64,000 nt of DNA, from the NCBI GenBank assembly GCA_016926735.1, contig JAFGOA010000036.1:1-64000 (forward strand), read 5' to 3'. This stretch comes from Promethearchaeota archaeon. GTDB taxonomy: Archaea; Asgardarchaeota; Lokiarchaeia; Sigyniarchaeales; SOKP01. The notes below the pieces were generated by a model, which ran no database searches, was not told where the DNA came from, and saw only the letters and a list, made by a program, of their open reading frames with translations. A program made the position numbers and the translations under genes. Of this stretch, positions 55,356-64,000 are shown piece by piece. Every line of letters begins with the position of its first letter. Positions within the stretch are counted from its first letter, which is position 1.

Positions 55356-55604
55356 CTCTTTGATTAAATCACTATTTTAAGAAATCCCCTTCTGTTCTGT
55401 AATTCTTTTTTTTTTGATTAAAATACGGAAATTATAGGAGATAATTCTCGATTAATTGTTATAAATTAATAATCATTAAGGGAGGAATAATTTTTATTAA
55501 TAAATTACTATTTTAGAAACATTACTAATATATTAATTAAATTTTCTGTTTAAAAACATAAATAATTTTATTATAATTCACCTTAAATCGTTTATCTTGT
55601 AAAA

Positions 55605-58600
55605 ATGTGTGCTGAAAATTTTAGTAAACAACTGATCTCAAGATTTGCTGAACTGGAGTGTGAAAGACAATTATTTTTAGACATAGCTCGTAAATTTCCT
55701 GAGAAATGGTATATTGATCAAAGAAAAATTGAACCGGCCAAACATATTCGTAAAAAGGTTGAATTATTAAAAAGATTAGGAAAAGAATATGAGGATATTG
55801 TTTATTCTTATTTGTTAAAACTAGAAGGTGTACAATATAATGACAGTGGCCCAAGAATAGTTGAGGATACCTATCTTAATCCTTTTTTATTTAAACAATT
55901 ATATGAAGAGAAGAAAAAAGCTCATAATATAGATTTTATATTACTTGAATTTCAATATGAAATACCTGAATCATTTTTTCTCGATCTCTTTCCTTTAAAA
56001 AACAAAAATGATACAATACCTGTAAGTTATGCGGAACAAAGACCTGATATTATAGTTATAGGAAATTCTCTATGTAAAAATCAAGATTCTATTTTTGAAT
56101 TAAAACCTAAAGGAATAATTAGAGAAGTTCCTAAAGAAGAATTAAACTATCGATATGGAATAAATATTATTGATATTAAAAATGTAAGAGAAGACCACAT
56201 TGGAAAAAAACAATTTGTAGAGATTTTCTATTATCTTTATACCTTAAGTTATTATTTAGAGAATTATAATTTAGAGAAAAAATTCTTTATTAATATCGAA
56301 TTCAATGGAATTTTTCCCAAATATGATAATAAAATTTTAAAAGATATTCATTATCTAAATGATATTATAGATTTAACAATTTTAATTCATTGGAAAGAAT
56401 CACATCAACTTTTTGTGGATATTATCGAAAAGATTAAGAATTTATGGTTAAAATCTCCAGTTTTAATTGATTCTATACCTGTGAATATTCAAACAAATTG
56501 TGGTTATTGTTTTTTCTTAGAGGATTGTAAAAAAACACTCGGATTTGATGGTATAAAAGAACCTAAAGATTGGTCATTAAAATTGTTACCGCACACATCT
56601 AATTCTATTTCCCAAAAATTAATTGAAATGAACTTTAATACTATTGCTGATGTTGCGAATAATATATATAAAATACCCATCAGTAGTACTCCTGAACCTA
56701 TATATTCAGAAATACCTCTTCTAGAATTAAGAGCTAAATCTCTTTTATTGAATGAAGAAATTAATCCAAAATCAGGACTTATTTATACTTATTCACTCCC
56801 TAAATTTTCATCTTTCTCAGTTATTTTTGCAGTAGAAACTGATCCGGCTAATGAAAGAGTGTATGCAGCAGGTTTTCTTGTTGAAATGACAACTTCACCA
56901 AATGCCCCCTTTAGCACAGTATTTGATAATTGGTGGTCTATTTGGAAAAGATCAATGATTAACAATACATCCCTTTCAGAAATTCAAAATGATCTAAATA
57001 GATATCTTATAAGAGAAATATCAATAGAAGAGGTTAGTTGGTTTTTCAATCTTCTCAAAAAACTAAAAAATATGATTATACTTCTAAATGGTGAAGAAAC
57101 AAAAAAAGGAAAAAAAAGAAAATCTACGTATGTTTTATATCAAATTTCTGCTGTTAATGAAGATCATACAAATAAGTCTGAAGCAAAATTTACGAAAGAA
57201 GTAATAAAAAAACTTCATTATATCCTTGAGTTATGTAATACCGTGGAAAATTACGTAGTTGTTGAAGGTTTAAATTCAGGGGATTATTATGGACCATCAA
57301 CTAGCTTTTTTTATTGGTCTAAGAGACAATTAGATAATTTTCAAGATATGTTGGAAAGAAATTTAGAGGAGATAGTCAAAGATATTCCTATATTCCGAAA
57401 ATATCTCAAGATTTTATTTTTGTTTAATCCTTCTGACTCAGAGGTTACCAATCCATACCAACCAAAAAAATTATTTAATGTTCAAAAGTTTTGTGAAACA
57501 ATTTTAGGAGTCCCTCTTATTATTGGTTATACTTGGCATGAAATTGCATATAAACAATTGGGATTACGTTCTAATAAAGATTATTGGATTCCTCATTTTA
57601 ATTATATGGATTTCAATAATTGGTATGAAATGATATTAGAAGAAGATCCAAATAAGGTTGAAGAAATTAAAAATGAAATACGTAAACAAATTATGCATAA
57701 AATCAGAACAATTAATCGGCTTAGATTTAAATTTCAAACTGAAAGTAAACATGTAATTTCTAAACATGCCAATATTATTAGTAGAAATGTGATAAAAAGA
57801 ACAATTTTAACCTCTGATTTTCATCCTATCGCAAAAGTTTGGTATTTATTCTCAAGATTAACAGGTGCTATAGATCAAATTGAAAAAACAGAAATTCGTA
57901 CTACTTATCCTGAATTCAGTATAGGTAAAATGGATGCTGCTAAAGTTAGTAATCTAAAATTGCATAAAATAAGTAATAAAACATACAATACATTTGAATT
58001 AAAGGACTTATCCAGTAATATGAAAATTGATATTGGTGATAGATTACTATTGATTCCAGAGTTTAAAAGAGATATTAGCTCTAATAGACGATTATTTCCT
58101 TGGATAATTACTATAGATGAAATATTATGGTCCTCAAAAATTAATGGATATAGAGTAAAAACTAAACTTATTTTTAGTGAGAATAAAGGAGAAGATAAAA
58201 TAAATGAACTTAAATTTGCAAATATAGAGACTCTAGATTGGTATCTATATCCTTTATCATTAGATGCTTGGTCAAGTAAATTATATAGCAATAATGGTTT
58301 ATTAGAAAGAAATAATATTGGAAAATCATGGCTTGGCCATCTACTATCATATATATGGAATATTCAATCAAAAGACAAATTAAAATGGCCTGAGAACTGG
58401 GTTTTTTCTGGACCTTCTGTCTATCTATACACGCCACTCCAATTGAATAGAATTAAAGATAAAAATACAAAATTAGATAGTGTAGATTTATTATCTAAAA
58501 TTTATCCGAATCCAGATCCATCACAAAAAAAAGCTATTAATTTAGTATTAGAAAATATAATATCTGCCATTCAGGGACCACCTGGAACAGGAAAATCTCA

Positions 58601-60092
58601 GACAATTACAACTTTAATTGATGAATACTATGAAAGATGTTTATTAAATAAAAAACATTCAATACGGATATTGATAACTGCATTCTCTTATGCGGCTCTA
58701 AGAGTTATAATAGACAAAATTCGAAATGCTAAAGATACTTTTGGTAATCCCACAAGTATATCCAAGCTTCAAATGGTCTTTTTAAGATCAAAATACCAAA
58801 AACCTATTAAAAATAAAAATGATGAGAGAAAAGTTGATGATCTTGTACGTGTTGGAAATTCATGGAAATTTAATGAGGAATCACGTATAGTCACAAATAC
58901 AAATCCTCTTGAAAACTCCTTGGAAGATAATTTTATTATGTTTGCAAATGCTCATCAATTATATTATTTACCTGAACGAGTTAAAGATAATTTTTATTTT
59001 GATTTAATATGTGTTGATGAAGCAAGTCAACTCCCTGTTGATTATTTTATATCAAGTTTACAATTTTTAAAAAATAAGAAATTTTTTATGAAAGAACCAG
59101 AAAAGACATTAAAAACTAAAATTGAGTCAAAAAATAATGAAATTCTTGGAGAACTAGAATTAAATTATGATGAAGATATAATTCCTACAAAAGTAATTAT
59201 TGTAGGGGATTATAATCAATTACCTCCTGTTCAACCTGTGCCTCCTCCTAAAAACCTCAAAATAATATTAGAAAGTCTTTTTGCTTATTATGTTAAAAAT
59301 CACAAAATTCCTAATGTACAACTCCAAATAAATTACAGATCGAATAGAGATATTGTGGAATATACATCCCAACTTGGTGTCTATAAGAATTTGAATGTAG
59401 ATAAAAAAAATATTAACAAATTACTTTTAGGTGATTTAGAAAGAGTTAAAAAAGATTGGGTTAAAAAAATGTTAGATCCAAAAAAAGCAGTTATCACTAT
59501 AATACATAATAGAAATTATGAGATTGGAATAAGTACTTTAGAATCTAAAATTGTAGTAAATCTCCTTAAAGGTTATTTTTCGATGATTAATCCTAAAAAT
59601 GAAGAAGAGGAAAGAATATTTTGGAAAGAGTATGTAGGAGTTGTAGCACCTCATAATGCTCAAGGAAGATTAATTATTCGGCAGATACACGATGAATTAA
59701 CAAATAATATTGAGCCTATTTCAAATCTTGAACATTCAGAGTTAATGTTCCTATTAAAAAACTCTATTTATTCCGTAGAAAAATTTCAAGGTTCTGATAG
59801 AGAACTAATCATTTCATCAATTGGCCTTTCAGATCGAGATCAAATCTCTGCTGAAAGTGAATTTATTTATGATCTTAATAGATTCAATGTTCTTACTTCA
59901 AGAGCAAAGTCTAAAATTATTTTAATAGCTAGTAAAAGATTTCTTAAATTTATTCCCAATAATAGAGAAATTATGAAAGAAGCTGCTCAAATAAGAAGAT
60001 TTGCGTACGAATATTGTAATAATTTTATAAATATTCAATTAAAAAATGAAAAAAATAAGAATGAAAAAGTACAATTAAGATATAAACATTAA
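55605..60092 (+). CDS. Dna2-like PD-(D/E)XK Fe-S nuclease / SF1B (Upf1/Dna2) helicase fusion
   Basis: N-terminal C20, RPDII, IIDIK, CGYCFFLEDC; helicase motifs SQKKA, QGPPGTGKS, VDEASQ, VGDYNQLPP, NYRS, SVEKFQGSDRE, NRFNVLTSRAK. Confidence 0.85.
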   Translation: MCAENFSKQLISRFAELECERQLFLDIARKFPEKWYIDQRKIEPAKHIRKKVELLKRLGKEYEDIVYSYLLKLEGVQYNDSGPRIVEDTYLNPFLFKQLYEEKKKAHNIDFILLEFQYEIPESFFLDLFPLKNKNDTIPVSYAEQRPDIIVIGNSLCKNQDSIFELKPKGIIREVPKEELNYRYGINIIDIKNVREDHIGKKQFVEIFYYLYTLSYYLENYNLEKKFFINIEFNGIFPKYDNKILKDIHYLNDIIDLTILIHWKESHQLFVDIIEKIKNLWLKSPVLIDSIPVNIQTNCGYCFFLEDCKKTLGFDGIKEPKDWSLKLLPHTSNSISQKLIEMNFNTIADVANNIYKIPISSTPEPIYSEIPLLELRAKSLLLNEEINPKSGLIYTYSLPKFSSFSVIFAVETDPANERVYAAGFLVEMTTSPNAPFSTVFDNWWSIWKRSMINNTSLSEIQNDLNRYLIREISIEEVSWFFNLLKKLKNMIILLNGEETKKGKKRKSTYVLYQISAVNEDHTNKSEAKFTKEVIKKLHYILELCNTVENYVVVEGLNSGDYYGPSTSFFYWSKRQLDNFQDMLERNLEEIVKDIPIFRKYLKILFLFNPSDSEVTNPYQPKKLFNVQKFCETILGVPLIIGYTWHEIAYKQLGLRSNKDYWIPHFNYMDFNNWYEMILEEDPNKVEEIKNEIRKQIMHKIRTINRLRFKFQTESKHVISKHANIISRNVIKRTILTSDFHPIAKVWYLFSRLTGAIDQIEKTEIRTTYPEFSIGKMDAAKVSNLKLHKISNKTYNTFELKDLSSNMKIDIGDRLLLIPEFKRDISSNRRLFPWIITIDEILWSSKINGYRVKTKLIFSENKGEDKINELKFANIETLDWYLYPLSLDAWSSKLYSNNGLLERNNIGKSWLGHLLSYIWNIQSKDKLKWPENWVFSGPSVYLYTPLQLNRIKDKNTKLDSVDLLSKIYPNPDPSQKKAINLVLENIISAIQGPPGTGKSQTITTLIDEYYERCLLNKKHSIRILITAFSYAALRVIIDKIRNAKDTFGNPTSISKLQMVFLRSKYQKPIKNKNDERKVDDLVRVGNSWKFNEESRIVTNTNPLENSLEDNFIMFANAHQLYYLPERVKDNFYFDLICVDEASQLPVDYFISSLQFLKNKKFFMKEPEKTLKTKIESKNNEILGELELNYDEDIIPTKVIIVGDYNQLPPVQPVPPPKNLKIILESLFAYYVKNHKIPNVQLQINYRSNRDIVEYTSQLGVYKNLNVDKKNINKLLLGDLERVKKDWVKKMLDPKKAVITIIHNRNYEIGISTLESKIVVNLLKGYFSMINPKNEEEERIFWKEYVGVVAPHNAQGRLIIRQIHDELTNNIEPISNLEHSELMFLLKNSIYSVEKFQGSDRELIISSIGLSDRDQISAESEFIYDLNRFNVLTSRAKSKIILIASKRFLKFIPNNREIMKEAAQIRRFAYEYCNNFINIQLKNEKNKNEKVQLRYKH

Positions 60093-60110
60093 ATTTACTT
60101 TGAGAATTAT

Positions 60111-61604
60111 ATGACGAATATAAAATTCCTACATATTGCTGATATTCATCTTGGTAAAAGGCAGTATAATCTTAAAGAAAGATATTATGATTATTTCCGT
60201 GTTTTTAAATCAATTTTAGAAAAATCCATTGAAAAAGAAGTGGATTTTATTTTAATTTCAGGAGATCTGTTTGATAACAGAAAAATAGGTCCTATTGTTT
60301 TAACTGATGTTTTTAATATCATATCTAAATTTAAAGAGAGAGCTAAAAATAAATTAAATCGAGATATTCCTCTAATCTGTATTGAGGGGAATCATGATAA
60401 TCCTATTTATTCAACTCAATCTTGGATGACATTCCTCGCAGATCTAGAACTAATTATCCTTCTATCTGGAAAATATGATAAAAATACAAAAAAAATAATT
60501 TTTGACCCATATGACTCTAAAACTCGACGAGGAGGAAAAATAAAAATAAAAAACATAACAATATATGGTCTCCCATTTTTTGGCAGTTCTACCGCTCATA
60601 TTTTTCCTCAAATCTATGATGCAATAGAACAAAATAATGAGCAATCTAATATTTTAATGATGCATTTTGGAATTCAAGGAAATGATCCTATAAAATCAGG
60701 AATAGAAATATCTGAAAGCTTAAATAAATTAAGAGAAAAAATAGATTATCTTGCTTTAGGTCACTTTCATAAACAATATATACTTCCTAAGAAAGATCCT
60801 TGGATCTTTAATCCGGGAAGTCTAGAAATTAATGATATTAAAGAATTATTTGAAAATTATGAAAGGGGAGCCTTTATAGTAAAAATTTTAGGAAAAGAGA
60901 TTTATCATGAAGAACTAATTTGTGAAATAGGAGATAATAATAGTAATATGATTTCTAATAGAAATTTTAAACTTCTTTCTCCAATAGATATTGGTGAAAC
61001 AAAATCATTTAAAGAAACAATTGTTTTAATATTAGATTCCTTGATAAAAGATCTCCCTGAAAAAAAATCCAATTTATCAAAATCAAAAGATGATCTCAAC
61101 TGTCCAATCGTTATTTTTTCTATAAAGGGACAAATTCCATATTCAAGATTGGAAGTAAATATAAATCAATTAAAAGGGGAAATTATGAATAAATTTTCAA
61201 TTCTTGATGTAAGAATTTTTTCAACATATCTCATATCAACATTAGATGATATTATTATATCTGAAGAAAAAAAAACTATAGAAGAGATTGAAACGGATGT
61301 ATTTAATGCAATTTTAAGTGAAAATCCTCTCTTTAAAGGTATTGAAAGTGACACAATAGCATTAATGAAAAATATAAAATTTGGTCTAATTGAAAAATCT
61401 CCAAATTATTTTGAAATAAAAGAGTCTATAAAAGATTGGTTTATGTCGTATGTTGATAAATTCGACTTACCAAAAATTAATATTTTTACAAAGAGTAAAA
61501 AAATCAAGGAAGAATCATCAGAAGAGAATAATGAGGAGGAGATAGAAGAGAATATTCAAGATGAATTCGATTTGGATGAATATATAGATGATATTGACAA
61601 TTAA
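60111..61604 (+). CDS. mre11: Mre11/SbcD DNA repair nuclease
   Basis: HIADIHLG, SGDLFD, EGNHD, ALGHFH, NPGSLE; acidic C-terminal tail. Confidence 0.92.
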   Translation: MTNIKFLHIADIHLGKRQYNLKERYYDYFRVFKSILEKSIEKEVDFILISGDLFDNRKIGPIVLTDVFNIISKFKERAKNKLNRDIPLICIEGNHDNPIYSTQSWMTFLADLELIILLSGKYDKNTKKIIFDPYDSKTRRGGKIKIKNITIYGLPFFGSSTAHIFPQIYDAIEQNNEQSNILMMHFGIQGNDPIKSGIEISESLNKLREKIDYLALGHFHKQYILPKKDPWIFNPGSLEINDIKELFENYERGAFIVKILGKEIYHEELICEIGDNNSNMISNRNFKLLSPIDIGETKSFKETIVLILDSLIKDLPEKKSNLSKSKDDLNCPIVIFSIKGQIPYSRLEVNINQLKGEIMNKFSILDVRIFSTYLISTLDDIIISEEKKTIEEIETDVFNAILSENPLFKGIESDTIALMKNIKFGLIEKSPNYFEIKESIKDWFMSYVDKFDLPKINIFTKSKKIKEESSEENNEEEIEENIQDEFDLDEYIDDIDN

Positions 61605-61620
61605 AGAGGAAAAACATAAA

Positions 61621-64000
61621 ATGCTTATAACTAAAATTGAATTAAAGAATATTACAACTCATAAAAAAACGTTAATTGAATTTCAGAATGGATTGAATTT
61701 ATTATTTGGAAATAATGGTACTGGTAAATCAACTGTTCTTAATATGATTGGATATGTACTATTTAATTATCTTCCAGGGAAGCAAGAGAGCTACGTTCGT
61801 CAAGCTAAACGTGGAGAAATAAAACATGGGATGATAAAAGTCTGGGTTGTTGGTTTAGATGATGAATTATATATAATAGAAAGAACATTAGGAAAATCTA
61901 ATCCTAAAATTCAGATTAAATATGGATATACAGATTTAATTGTTCCCGGAGTAAATAATAAAATGGATTTAGAAGAATGGGTAAAAATTCAATTAAAATT
62001 AAATCCAGAAACTAATTTATCCGATCTTTTTAAAACATCTATTGGTGTACCTCAAGGAACATTTACACAACCTTTTTTAGAAACCCCTCAAAACAGAAAG
62101 AATTTTTTTGATCCTATTCTAAAGGTTGATGTATATAGGAAAATTTGGAAGAATTTTTTAAATATTATTAAAGAATTAGATAATGATATAGTTGAAATAA
62201 AACTTAAAAAAGAAAAATTAGAAGGACGATTAGAACCTATAGATGAGATAAAGAATGATAATGACCAATATATCTTAAAATTAAAAAAATCAGAAAGACA
62301 ATTAACCAATATTAAAAAGGAATTAGAATTATTAGAAAGAAAAAACAAGGAATACAAAAAAATAGATGATGAATTAAAAGAAAAAAATATTCTGAAAGAT
62401 CAGATATTAAATCAAAAAAATGAATTATATGAAAATCTAAAATCAATAAAAAATAAATTAGAAACAGCTCGAAAAGCTGGTGCTATTTGTGATAAAACCT
62501 TAAATGATTATGAAAAATATGAAGATTATCTAAAAGAGGAACAAAAATTAAAAAAATTAAATGAAGAACTAATTGATTTGAATAAAAATTATAATAAATT
62601 AAACCAAAAATTAATTCAATTGAAGAGTAATAGAGAAGAAAATCTTAATGAAATATCTGAAATAAACAAACAAAAAAAATCCTTTTTAGAGTTAGAAAAA
62701 AATTATGAATTATCACAACACCTAAAAGGAGAATATGAGACTTTAATGGGAAAAAAAAAAGAAATTATTATCTATGAAAAAGACCTTGAAGATTTTAAAA
62801 TAAAAAATGTTGAAATTACTAAAAAAATAGATGAAATTGAAAAGAAATATGATAATTACTCTGAATTAAAAAAAAAAAAAGAGATATTAGACAATAAGAA
62901 AGAATTAAAACATACATTAGAAATCAATATAAGTAAACTCGAAACTAGAATAAAACAGCTTGAAGAGAATAAGATTCAATCCAAGGGAGGTATTTGTCCA
63001 ATATTAAACGAACAATGCCGTAATATAGGAAGTAAATCTTTTAATGAAATATTTCAAAAAGAATTAGATGTATTAAATAAAGAATTAAAACCCGAATTAA
63101 AAAAAAGAAATGAAATTGATAAGGAATTAAAAGAATATGATATAATAAATAAAGAAATTAATAAATTGGATGAGCTAAAAGTACAATTAGATCTTCATAA
63201 GGAAACAAAACTTGAGATTGGAAAAAACATAAGACATCTTATTGATAAAACAAAAGAAAAGCAAGAAATAATAAGTAAATTAGATGATTATAAAAAAAAA
63301 AAAGATGAATTGGAATCAGATATCGAAAAATTTAATGTATATAAAGAAAAACTCTATGTTGATTTACCAAAAAGGAAAAAAAAAATAGAGGATTTGAACA
63401 ATAAAATCATCCCATTACAAGAAGAACTAAAACCTCTCAGAGAAAGAATTGAACATCTTGAAGAAAATCCTGAGAAATTAAAACTTATTAATATAAAATT
63501 AAATTCATTGAAAGAAAATCATGATCTATATTTATCTAATAAGGATATTGCCAGAACTGTACAAGAACTAGAAAAAGAACAAAATATTATAGAGGAGAAA
63601 TACAATAAATTGGAAAAAAAAAATCAAGGAATAATGAGTGAAATAGAAAAAATAAGTAAGACATATGATAGAAACGATAAAGAAAATGTAGAAAAAAGAT
63701 TTTTGAGTCTTAAAGAAGAGCAAGGAAAGATCTTAGAATCAATTAATGATTCAAAAGATAGATTAAAGGAGATTAACAAAAAATTAGAACAACTTAAGAA
63801 GATTGAAGATAATTTAAAAATTACTATGGATAAATTAAAGACATTAGATTTTATTAAAGATATTTCTGAAAAAATTCGCTCATATTATAAAATAGCAGGT
63901 CCAAAAATTGCAGAAACGTTATTAAAACATATTAATGCCGAAGCTACTAACCATTATAGGTCTATTATGGAAGATCATAATGTAATTTTAACATGGGAAG
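61621..64000 (+). CDS. rad50: Rad50/SbcC SMC-family ATPase (runs off the window end; absent from the ORF track)
   Basis: Hand translation from ATG 61621: MLITKIELKNITTH..GLNLLFGNNGTGKST, Q-loop IGVPQGTF, coiled coil, CPILNEQC hook at 62995-63018; still in frame at the window end (AGPKIAETLL..LTWE). Confidence 0.92.
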   Translation, partial: MLITKIELKNITTHKKTLIEFQNGLNLLFGNNGTGKSTVLNMIGYVLFNYLPGKQESYVRQAKRGEIKHGMIKVWVVGLDDELYIIERTLGKSNPKIQIKYGYTDLIVPGVNNKMDLEEWVKIQLKLNPETNLSDLFKTSIGVPQGTFTQPFLETPQNRKNFFDPILKVDVYRKIWKNFLNIIKELDNDIVEIKLKKEKLEGRLEPIDEIKNDNDQYILKLKKSERQLTNIKKELELLERKNKEYKKIDDELKEKNILKDQILNQKNELYENLKSIKNKLETARKAGAICDKTLNDYEKYEDYLKEEQKLKKLNEELIDLNKNYNKLNQKLIQLKSNREENLNEISEINKQKKSFLELEKNYELSQHLKGEYETLMGKKKEIIIYEKDLEDFKIKNVEITKKIDEIEKKYDNYSELKKKKEILDNKKELKHTLEINISKLETRIKQLEENKIQSKGGICPILNEQCRNIGSKSFNEIFQKELDVLNKELKPELKKRNEIDKELKEYDIINKEINKLDELKVQLDLHKETKLEIGKNIRHLIDKTKEKQEIISKLDDYKKKKDELESDIEKFNVYKEKLYVDLPKRKKKIEDLNNKIIPLQEELKPLRERIEHLEENPEKLKLINIKLNSLKENHDLYLSNKDIARTVQELEKEQNIIEEKYNKLEKKNQGIMSEIEKISKTYDRNDKENVEKRFLSLKEEQGKILESINDSKDRLKEINKKLEQLKKIEDNLKITMDKLKTLDFIKDISEKIRSYYKIAGPKIAETLLKHINAEATNHYRSIMEDHNVILTWE

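Follow-up and report, generated by a model that had tools for sequence, protein, structure and literature searches.

Introduction

Which nuclease and which motor work with Mre11-Rad50 in an Asgard archaeon whose mre11 and rad50 genes stand beside neither herA nor nurA? Archaeal mre11-rad50 genes are usually clustered with herA and nurA, whereas eukaryotic resection couples the MRX/MRN complex to the nuclease-helicase Dna2. The question is raised by a locus at the end of a 64,000-nucleotide (nt) stretch, hereafter the window (contig C16:1-64000), from a Lokiarchaeial (Asgard) genome that is 3.88 Mb in size, 99% complete and has a G+C content of about 25%. Here mre11 and rad50 directly follow a gene, which we call helnuc, for a protein that appears to join a nuclease, an exonuclease-like domain and a helicase in one chain. 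An earlier note on this DNA had suggested that the locus pairs an enzyme of Dna2 architecture with Mre11-Rad50, either as a eukaryote-like resection machine or as an acquired system against plasmids or viruses.

We propose, with moderate confidence and from comparison of sequences and predicted folds, that helnuc, mre11 and rad50 (the trio) encode an end-resection machinery in which a Dna2-analogous Helnuc works with Mre11-Rad50 and replaces HerA-NurA. A functional pairing of the two appears well supported, because synteny is conserved, the members of the trio are co-inherited and one relative places helnuc in a full herA-mre11-rad50-nurA cluster. To this extent the suggestion of the earlier note stands; its eukaryote-like reading holds only as an analogy, and an acquired-defence origin is not favoured.

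A 2026 review of NurA describes Asgard resection as uncharacterised, offers the speculation that in eukaryotes NurA gave way to Exo1 and Dna2, makes no mention of a helnuc operon, and treats the transition from HerA-NurA to the eukaryotic Mre11-Rad50 with Dna2/Exo1 as an explicitly open question (PMC13748450). We came across no publication on the Asgard helnuc-mre11-rad50 operon in our literature searches. An Asgard order with two members in culture, P. syntrophicum and L. ossiferum, appears to have retained Mre11-Rad50 and paired it with a Dna2-style nuclease-helicase, and relatives display both the classical and a mixed state of the resection operon. This provides a concrete system, clonable and assayable, for how resection motors are exchanged. 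Helnuc also represents an unannotated protein family, whose public copies carry only the labels “AAA domain”, “DEAD/DEAH helicase” or “hypothetical” and whose folds suggest that a single chain unites a motor with two nuclease-type domains.

The helnuc-mre11-rad50 locus and its conservation

The three genes are co-oriented and separated by gaps of only 18 nt (helnuc-mre11) and 16 nt (mre11-rad50, counted from the rad50 ATG at 61621), so that the open reading frame (ORF) coordinates in Table 1 agree with what had been read in the earlier note. The rad50 start is preceded by an AGAGGA ribosome-binding site and coincides with the point at which the family alignments begin; an alternative ATG at 61588 would overlap mre11 by 17 nt and give a product of 914 amino acids (aa). 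The gene upstream of the T9 run encodes a Roadblock/LC7 protein (Pfam), and a further T-run follows the rad50 stop codon. The position of the TATA-like box suggests that helnuc is leaderless or has a short leader. Because T-runs are confined to the two outer ends of the trio and absent from both internal gaps, the spacing is tight and a ribosome-binding site lies internally, we infer co-transcription, and the arrangement fits a single transcript. The neighbours of the trio are housekeeping genes, either metabolic or ribosomal. The intergenic region upstream also contains a strong GGGAGGA ribosome-binding-like site (window 55479-55486), at the usual distance from which no ATG, GTG or TTG was seen.

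Table 1. Coordinates of the trio, its signals and domains, and of three Asgard proteins used for comparison.
Feature	Position	Strand	Description and basis
T9 run	55407..55416	+	Likely archaeal terminator, putative boundary of the upstream operon; read from the sequence
TATA-like AT-rich box	55566..55577	+	About 30 nt ahead of the helnuc start codon; read from the sequence
helnuc (P0001), nuclease-exonuclease-like-helicase	55605..60092	+	1495 aa; ORF call
Cas4-like PD-(D/E)XK nuclease domain, putative Fe-S	55605..56594	+	aa 1-330; invariant residues, AlphaFold2 fold match
DEDD/DnaQ-like 3'-5' exonuclease fold	56805..57776	+	aa 401-724; structural alignment, motif comparison
Beta-barrel/stalk and SF1B helicase	57822..60089	+	aa 740-1495, with the Walker A motif GPPGTGKS (aa 991-998)
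mre11 (P0002)	60111..61604	+	497 aa, acidic C-terminal tail; Metallophos and archaeal Mre11 models
rad50 (P0003)	61621..64000	+	903 aa from ATG 61621; ORF continues to contig position 64332
Rad50 hook, C-P-x5-C in place of CxxC	62986..63018	+	Form conserved throughout the order, a herA-linked Rad50 among them
Asgard Pfam-Dna2 proteins, about 1000-1170 aa	L163:191-3172, L164:534-3521, L165:1761-5270		Dna2 and AAA_11/12

Trio loci were gathered from 41 relatives and from a scan of the genomes of 185,579 species. The adjacency noticed earlier in this one genome recurs far beyond chance: at least 27 related loci in Lokiarchaeia carry the trio, with identities as low as about 40%, and among the carriers are Promethearchaeum syntrophicum MK-D1, Lokiarchaeum ossiferum B35 and Harpocratesius repetitus. 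Full-length helnuc homologues occur in 24 of the 41 relatives, where the orthologue adjoins mre11-rad50 wherever the contig extends far enough, and the gaps measure 16-18 nt in most trio loci. The trio is the sole conserved block while its flanks turn over, with no flanking gene family common to more than five of the 22 complete trio loci. Moreover, the pairwise identities of Helnuc, Mre11 and Rad50 correlate (about r = 0.95), and helnuc, the long type of Mre11 (Mre11-A) and Rad50 are jointly present or absent in the 41 relatives, except in two genomes with a classical cluster.

In a FastTree phylogeny rooted with distant relatives of the same architecture, the Mre11-Rad50-linked Helnuc proteins group in a single clade of 27 rows with a support of 100, whose internal order is that of the GTDB families. 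The next branches outward are a Lokiarchaeial paralogue clade without Mre11-Rad50, then a Heimdall copy together with one Myxococcales copy, and a Myxococcota/Bradymonadales clade. The existence of a single linked clade argues that the linkage of helnuc to mre11-rad50 had a single origin and was retained through descent, and since this clade tracks taxonomy, the trio's history fits vertical inheritance.

Domain structure of Helnuc

Pfam coverage of Helnuc is limited to about aa 970-1445 (AAA_11/AAA_12), so that about 950 residues fall under no Pfam model; aa 1-330, the nuclease domain, have no Pfam match, and a PDB sequence profile of aa 1-950 gave no match at E <= 10. Conserved residues were read from an alignment of 15 homologues and the folds from AlphaFold2 models. 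The single early cysteine and the CxxC-x5-C group around a PD-(D/E)XK site that had been pointed out before are confirmed as C19 and C299-x2-C302-x5-C308, with the “iron-staple” spacing of Cas4, AddB and Dna2, and they are invariant in the alignment, as are the nuclease residues E115, D148 and D190-x-K192. All motifs of a superfamily 1B (SF1B) helicase are likewise present and invariant, which together with the Pfam matches bears out the complete Upf1/Dna2-type helicase of the earlier note.

The model of aa 1-950 has a predicted local distance difference test score (pLDDT) of 78. A Foldseek search with this 950-residue model returned nothing significant, and the fold matches for the N-terminal half come from the VIA all-against-representatives structure aligner. 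With it, aa 3-330 align to Cas4 (7mi4_A; Z 9.9, 198 residues), and aa 401-724 align to the exonuclease domains of Pol alpha, epsilon and II (Z 13-14, 180-196 residues) and are closest to the DEDD exonuclease domains of family-B polymerases. The model of aa 740-1495 (pLDDT 81.5) has mouse Dna2 as its top Foldseek match (5ean_A; E 1.6e-24, 784 columns), with a marginal lead, as Upf1, Sen1 and IGHMBP2 are nearly tied. A PDB sequence profile of the helicase also places mouse DNA2 best (1e-14), and its ranking of these proteins is identical.

Despite its fold, the DEDD domain does not hold the complete DEDDh catalytic set (ExoI DxE, ExoII D, ExoIII Hx4D). It keeps E411, D413 and the Hx4D pair (H664, D669), but the first aspartate of ExoI is Ala409, and this position is non-acidic in most Mre11-Rad50-linked relatives; the ExoI DxE is kept in the Helnuc paralogues, in most bacterial copies and in one linked subclade. 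As the first catalytic aspartate is missing both here and in most linked relatives, the domain is probably weakened catalytically, and a module that holds DNA, or the 3' strand, is more likely than an active 3'-5' exonuclease.

The succession of a Cas4-like nuclease and a PolB-exonuclease-like RNase H-fold domain (aa 1-724) resembles that in RecB-like nucleases of the TM0106 family and in YprB-type RNase H-like proteins; in Helnuc, unlike these, the pair is fused to a barrel and SF1B helicase of 750 aa, and NCBIfam TIGR03491 (the TM0106 family) does not match Helnuc at E <= 0.01. In the MK-D1 (L107, L110), Harpocratesius (L116, L132) and f4 (L113, L115) lineages, Helnuc carries a C-terminal extension with a DDDLF-like tip, which may be a docking peptide.

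Mre11 and Rad50

The second protein of the trio matches Pfam Metallophos (4e-16), and its best NCBIfam models are archaeal (Mre11_Pyroc, 1e-30, below the equivalog cut-off), with the motifs DxH, GDLFD, GNHD and GHFH readable in the translation. The third matches the NCBIfam archaeal Rad50 model PRK03918 (2e-38, below equivalog cut-offs) and has the ABC ATPase heads, a coiled coil, and a C-terminal signature, Walker B and H-loop. The earlier note had raised the possibility of a second mre11-rad50 pair; none was found, and the trio's Mre11 and Rad50 are the sole copies detected in this 99%-complete genome. They are also orthologous to the Mre11 and Rad50 of the classical herA/nurA operons of relatives.

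Several lineages differ in detail. A Rad50 hook of the form CPxC was seen only in the Harpocratesius clade. The Mre11 C-terminus (window 61500-61601) forms an acidic tail that bears a DLDDYIDD-like motif; such a tail is found in most linked loci and is absent from the Mre11 of the MK-D1 clade. In one subclade (L038:1359-3950; L099, L102, L119) rad50 is closely followed by a second Rad50/SMC-like gene, whose product has about 840-860 aa.

Proposed replacement of HerA-NurA by Helnuc

In the archaeal herA-mre11-rad50-nurA operon, known from Sulfolobus and Pyrococcus (PMC13748450), mre11-rad50 likewise share their locus with genes for a motor and for a 5'-strand nuclease. Compared with that operon, mre11 and rad50 are here also adjacent and co-oriented, whereas herA and nurA are missing from the cluster, and the motor and nuclease of Helnuc form one polypeptide of unrelated folds (SF1B and Cas4-like, against the hexameric HerA ring and NurA). 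The earlier note had supposed that herA and nurA could lie just downstream. Neither is present in the window or in the 16 kb of contig that follow rad50, which hold only small or unrelated ORFs, for example DUF359.

Elsewhere in this genome, the operon-type HerA of relatives finds only one match, 26% identical, and their operon-type NurA finds none. NurA models match twice, to a solo gene on contig C110 and to a NurA-HerA pair on contig C147. The pair (C147:81-8676; L086), consisting of a NurA of 305 aa and a HerA of 629 aa between McrB/McrC-like genes and DruA, looks like a defence-island pair rather than a resection pair. The solo NurA, of about 428 aa (C110:31991-32872; L087:7887-9170), stands beside an rRNA adenine dimethylase and is kept in 39 of the 41 relatives, with or without Mre11-Rad50.

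G029 and G037, two relatives from this order, carry the classical herA-mre11-rad50-nurA genes (herA-mre11, rad50-nurA) and lack helnuc. A third, G039, has a composite arrangement on a contig of 12.8 kb, helnuc-x-herA-mre11-rad50-nurA, in which the C-terminus of Helnuc, an ORF of 200 aa (x), HerA, Mre11, Rad50 and NurA are encoded on one strand. To judge from gene content, this composite cluster is the strongest tie of helnuc to the archaeal end-resection operon, and helnuc appears to hold the operon position of HerA-NurA in most of this Lokiarchaeial order.

Distribution of the Helnuc family

A profile of the N-terminal part of Helnuc detects only 352 proteins among 1.84 billion representatives. 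The family is present in 53 of 400 sampled Asgard genomes, including three families outside the home order, and the source names of matches to the helicase region add Hermod-, Hod-, Sigyn- and Heimdallarchaeota. In this helicase-region search, run for the nearest named outgroup, the matches listed were taken up by members of the Helnuc family. The bacterial copies are all in Myxococcota-type metagenome-assembled genomes (MAGs). A beta-CASP nuclease was considered as a general partner of the unlinked homologues and rejected, as it occurs only beside L133 and L137, which are closely related and of Myxococcaceae type, and beside one Lokiarchaeial paralogue.

Proposed function and its alternatives

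If the trio acts in end resection, Mre11-Rad50 would bind and open a double-strand break's end, and Helnuc would then perform long-range resection of the 5' strand. Its SF1B motor would travel 5'-to-3' on this strand, the Cas4-like nuclease ahead of the motor would cut it in the fashion of Dna2, and a 3' tail would be left for RadA. The mechanism we infer, including helicase polarity and strand choice, has its ground in the demonstrated activities of Bad, a DNA2-like helicase-nuclease of Geobacillus that is a 5'-3' translocase and single-stranded DNA endonuclease (PMC7430649). Bad belongs to the same architectural class, with an Fe-S iron-staple nuclease and an SF1 helicase, but it is of a different family and has neither a link to Mre11-Rad50 nor a DEDD domain. 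For the gene layout there is a bacterial precedent in the putative addB-addA-sbcD-sbcC operon of Bacillus subtilis (PMC1533848), where a helicase-nuclease with an iron-staple nuclease, there in AddB, is encoded directly upstream of Mre11/Rad50 homologues. Unlike Helnuc, AddAB is bacterial, two-subunit, SF1A-based and without a DEDD domain.

A bolder version of this proposal, which we offer only tentatively, would go from the presumed coupling to a physical complex of Helnuc with Mre11-Rad50, perhaps through the DLDDYIDD-type tail of Mre11. Helnuc would then be a single-polypeptide enzyme of long-range resection that displaced HerA-NurA in Lokiarchaeia, and an independent, pre-eukaryotic invention, from a family shared by Asgard archaea and Myxococcota, of the design for which eukaryotes employ Dna2, namely Mre11-Rad50 combined with an Fe-S nuclease and an SF1B helicase.

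A number of observations weigh against a role of the trio in end resection. Since the linkage seems to have a single origin, the many trio occurrences are not independent of each other. Helnuc, Mre11-A and Rad50 are together absent from 18 of the 41 relatives, several of which are 99-100% complete, and this joint absence indicates that the module is dispensable. In the MK-D1 clade a CitMHS transporter, alone or together with an oxidoreductase, is inserted between helnuc and mre11; one trio locus has a divergent orientation; and Mre11-Rad50 is missing from the vicinity of one orthologue (L104). Helnuc copies in the three Asgard families outside the home order never adjoin Mre11-Rad50, the Myxococcota-type copies are unlinked to it, and one bacterial homologue (L118:138-14527) lies immediately after DUF6079, PglZ and a DEAD/Cas3-like helicase, a BREX-like setting. 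Finally, the composite cluster with herA and nurA is known from one MAG contig only; two metagenome scans gave no second example, the first yielding no relatives of the query and the second 80 HerA loci, none of which contains helnuc.

The three genes might, alternatively, be linked for another DNA transaction. Stalled or reversed forks, hairpins, protein-blocked ends and flaps are other known jobs of Dna2 and of SbcCD/Mre11-Rad50, and the evidence for linkage would serve such a role equally, as would the dispensability of the module in many relatives. The SbcC of B. subtilis, for example, is tied to cross-link repair and to the replisome (PMC1533848). The sequence itself separates neither role from the other, yet G039 puts helnuc with the full herA-mre11-rad50-nurA resection set, and we consider such another transaction unlikely.

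It is also conceivable that the trio degrades foreign linear DNA as an anti-virus or anti-plasmid module, in the manner of RecBCD/AddAB or of SMC-nuclease systems such as Lamassu. PADLOC gives domain-level matches, to MkoA and DpdJ on the helicase and to LmuB on Rad50, but these are partial and belong to different systems, and Mre11 has no PADLOC match. Presence among close relatives is patchy, the bacterial L118 copy has the BREX-like setting described above, and the Dna2-like Bad adjoins a type III-like methyltransferase (PMC7430649). However, the Mre11 and Rad50 in question are the genome's only ones and are orthologous to those of classical herA/nurA operons, no defence or mobile genes flank the trio in any Lokiarchaeial example checked, and the Helnuc tree follows taxonomy. 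Searches of 50,697 phage records, of 72,556 plasmids and of the IMG/VR viral contigs also revealed no Helnuc homologue. With housekeeping genes as neighbours and signs of vertical inheritance added to this, the acquired-defence alternative of the earlier note is not favoured and appears distinctly improbable.

The adjacency could, lastly, be inherited gene order and nothing else, with Helnuc acting independently of Mre11-Rad50. The single origin of the linkage, the tolerance of insertions and of divergent orientation, and the mostly solitary homologues outside the linked clade would agree with this, but persistence as the sole conserved block amid changing flanks, joint presence and absence, and the short gaps in most loci speak for coupling and make independence very unlikely.

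Helnuc and eukaryotic Dna2

Resection by Helnuc with Mre11-Rad50 would resemble the long-range resection by MRN/MRX and Dna2 (with Sgs1/BLM and RPA) in the partner, and Helnuc resembles Dna2 itself in having a putative Fe-S PD-(D/E)XK nuclease at the N-terminus, followed by a beta-barrel and a Upf1-like SF1B helicase. Unlike Dna2, Helnuc has an extra DEDD-fold domain, and no RecQ partner is encoded in the locus. Pfam Dna2 (PF08696) does not match Helnuc at E <= 0.01, and nothing in this genome scores over its cut-off.

Proteins that do match PF08696, of about 970-1220 aa, are found in 59 of the 400 Asgard genomes, with carriers unevenly spread over the families (31 of 31 genomes in f13, 10 of 12 in f15, 11 of 22 in f16 and 0 of 134 in f1); none was found in the 134 genomes of the window's own family. 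Two of the three listed in Table 1 also match PDDEXK_1, and the two of these three that have about 995 aa bear a C-terminal RING finger. In f15 and in G039 such proteins occur alongside Helnuc, and the present Helnuc (P0001) is 21% identical to one of them, in the helicase only. The lack of a PF08696 match, this coexistence and the identity confined to the helicase argue that the likeness to Dna2 is architectural: by these comparisons Helnuc copies the Dna2 layout, as a likeness of design, and is probably not the Asgard Dna2 orthologue.

That Helnuc is nevertheless an Asgard orthologue of eukaryotic Dna2 or its ancestor, and the operon the direct forerunner of MRN-Dna2 resection, is exceedingly improbable, since the shared order of Fe-S nuclease and SF1B helicase and the first place of mouse Dna2 among the PDB matches of the helicase half, by profile and by fold, are set against a nuclease half without any PDB sequence match or PF08696 match, a lead of Dna2 over Upf1 that is only marginal, an additional DEDD domain of 320 aa, and the distinct Pfam-Dna2 proteins of about 1000-1170 aa in f13, f15, f16 and G039. 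The “eukaryote-like” resection of the earlier note thus holds only as an analogy, given the missing PF08696 match, the extra domain and the separate Asgard Pfam-Dna2 proteins.

Another Mre11-like gene

Relatives also encode a “type B” Mre11-like gene of 395 aa, which is paired with a PHP-domain protein and was set aside as a separate system. The two, a 395-aa Mre11-like phosphoesterase and a 537-aa PHP-domain protein, form a recurrent two-gene unit (L080:5157-8017, with similar loci in relatives).

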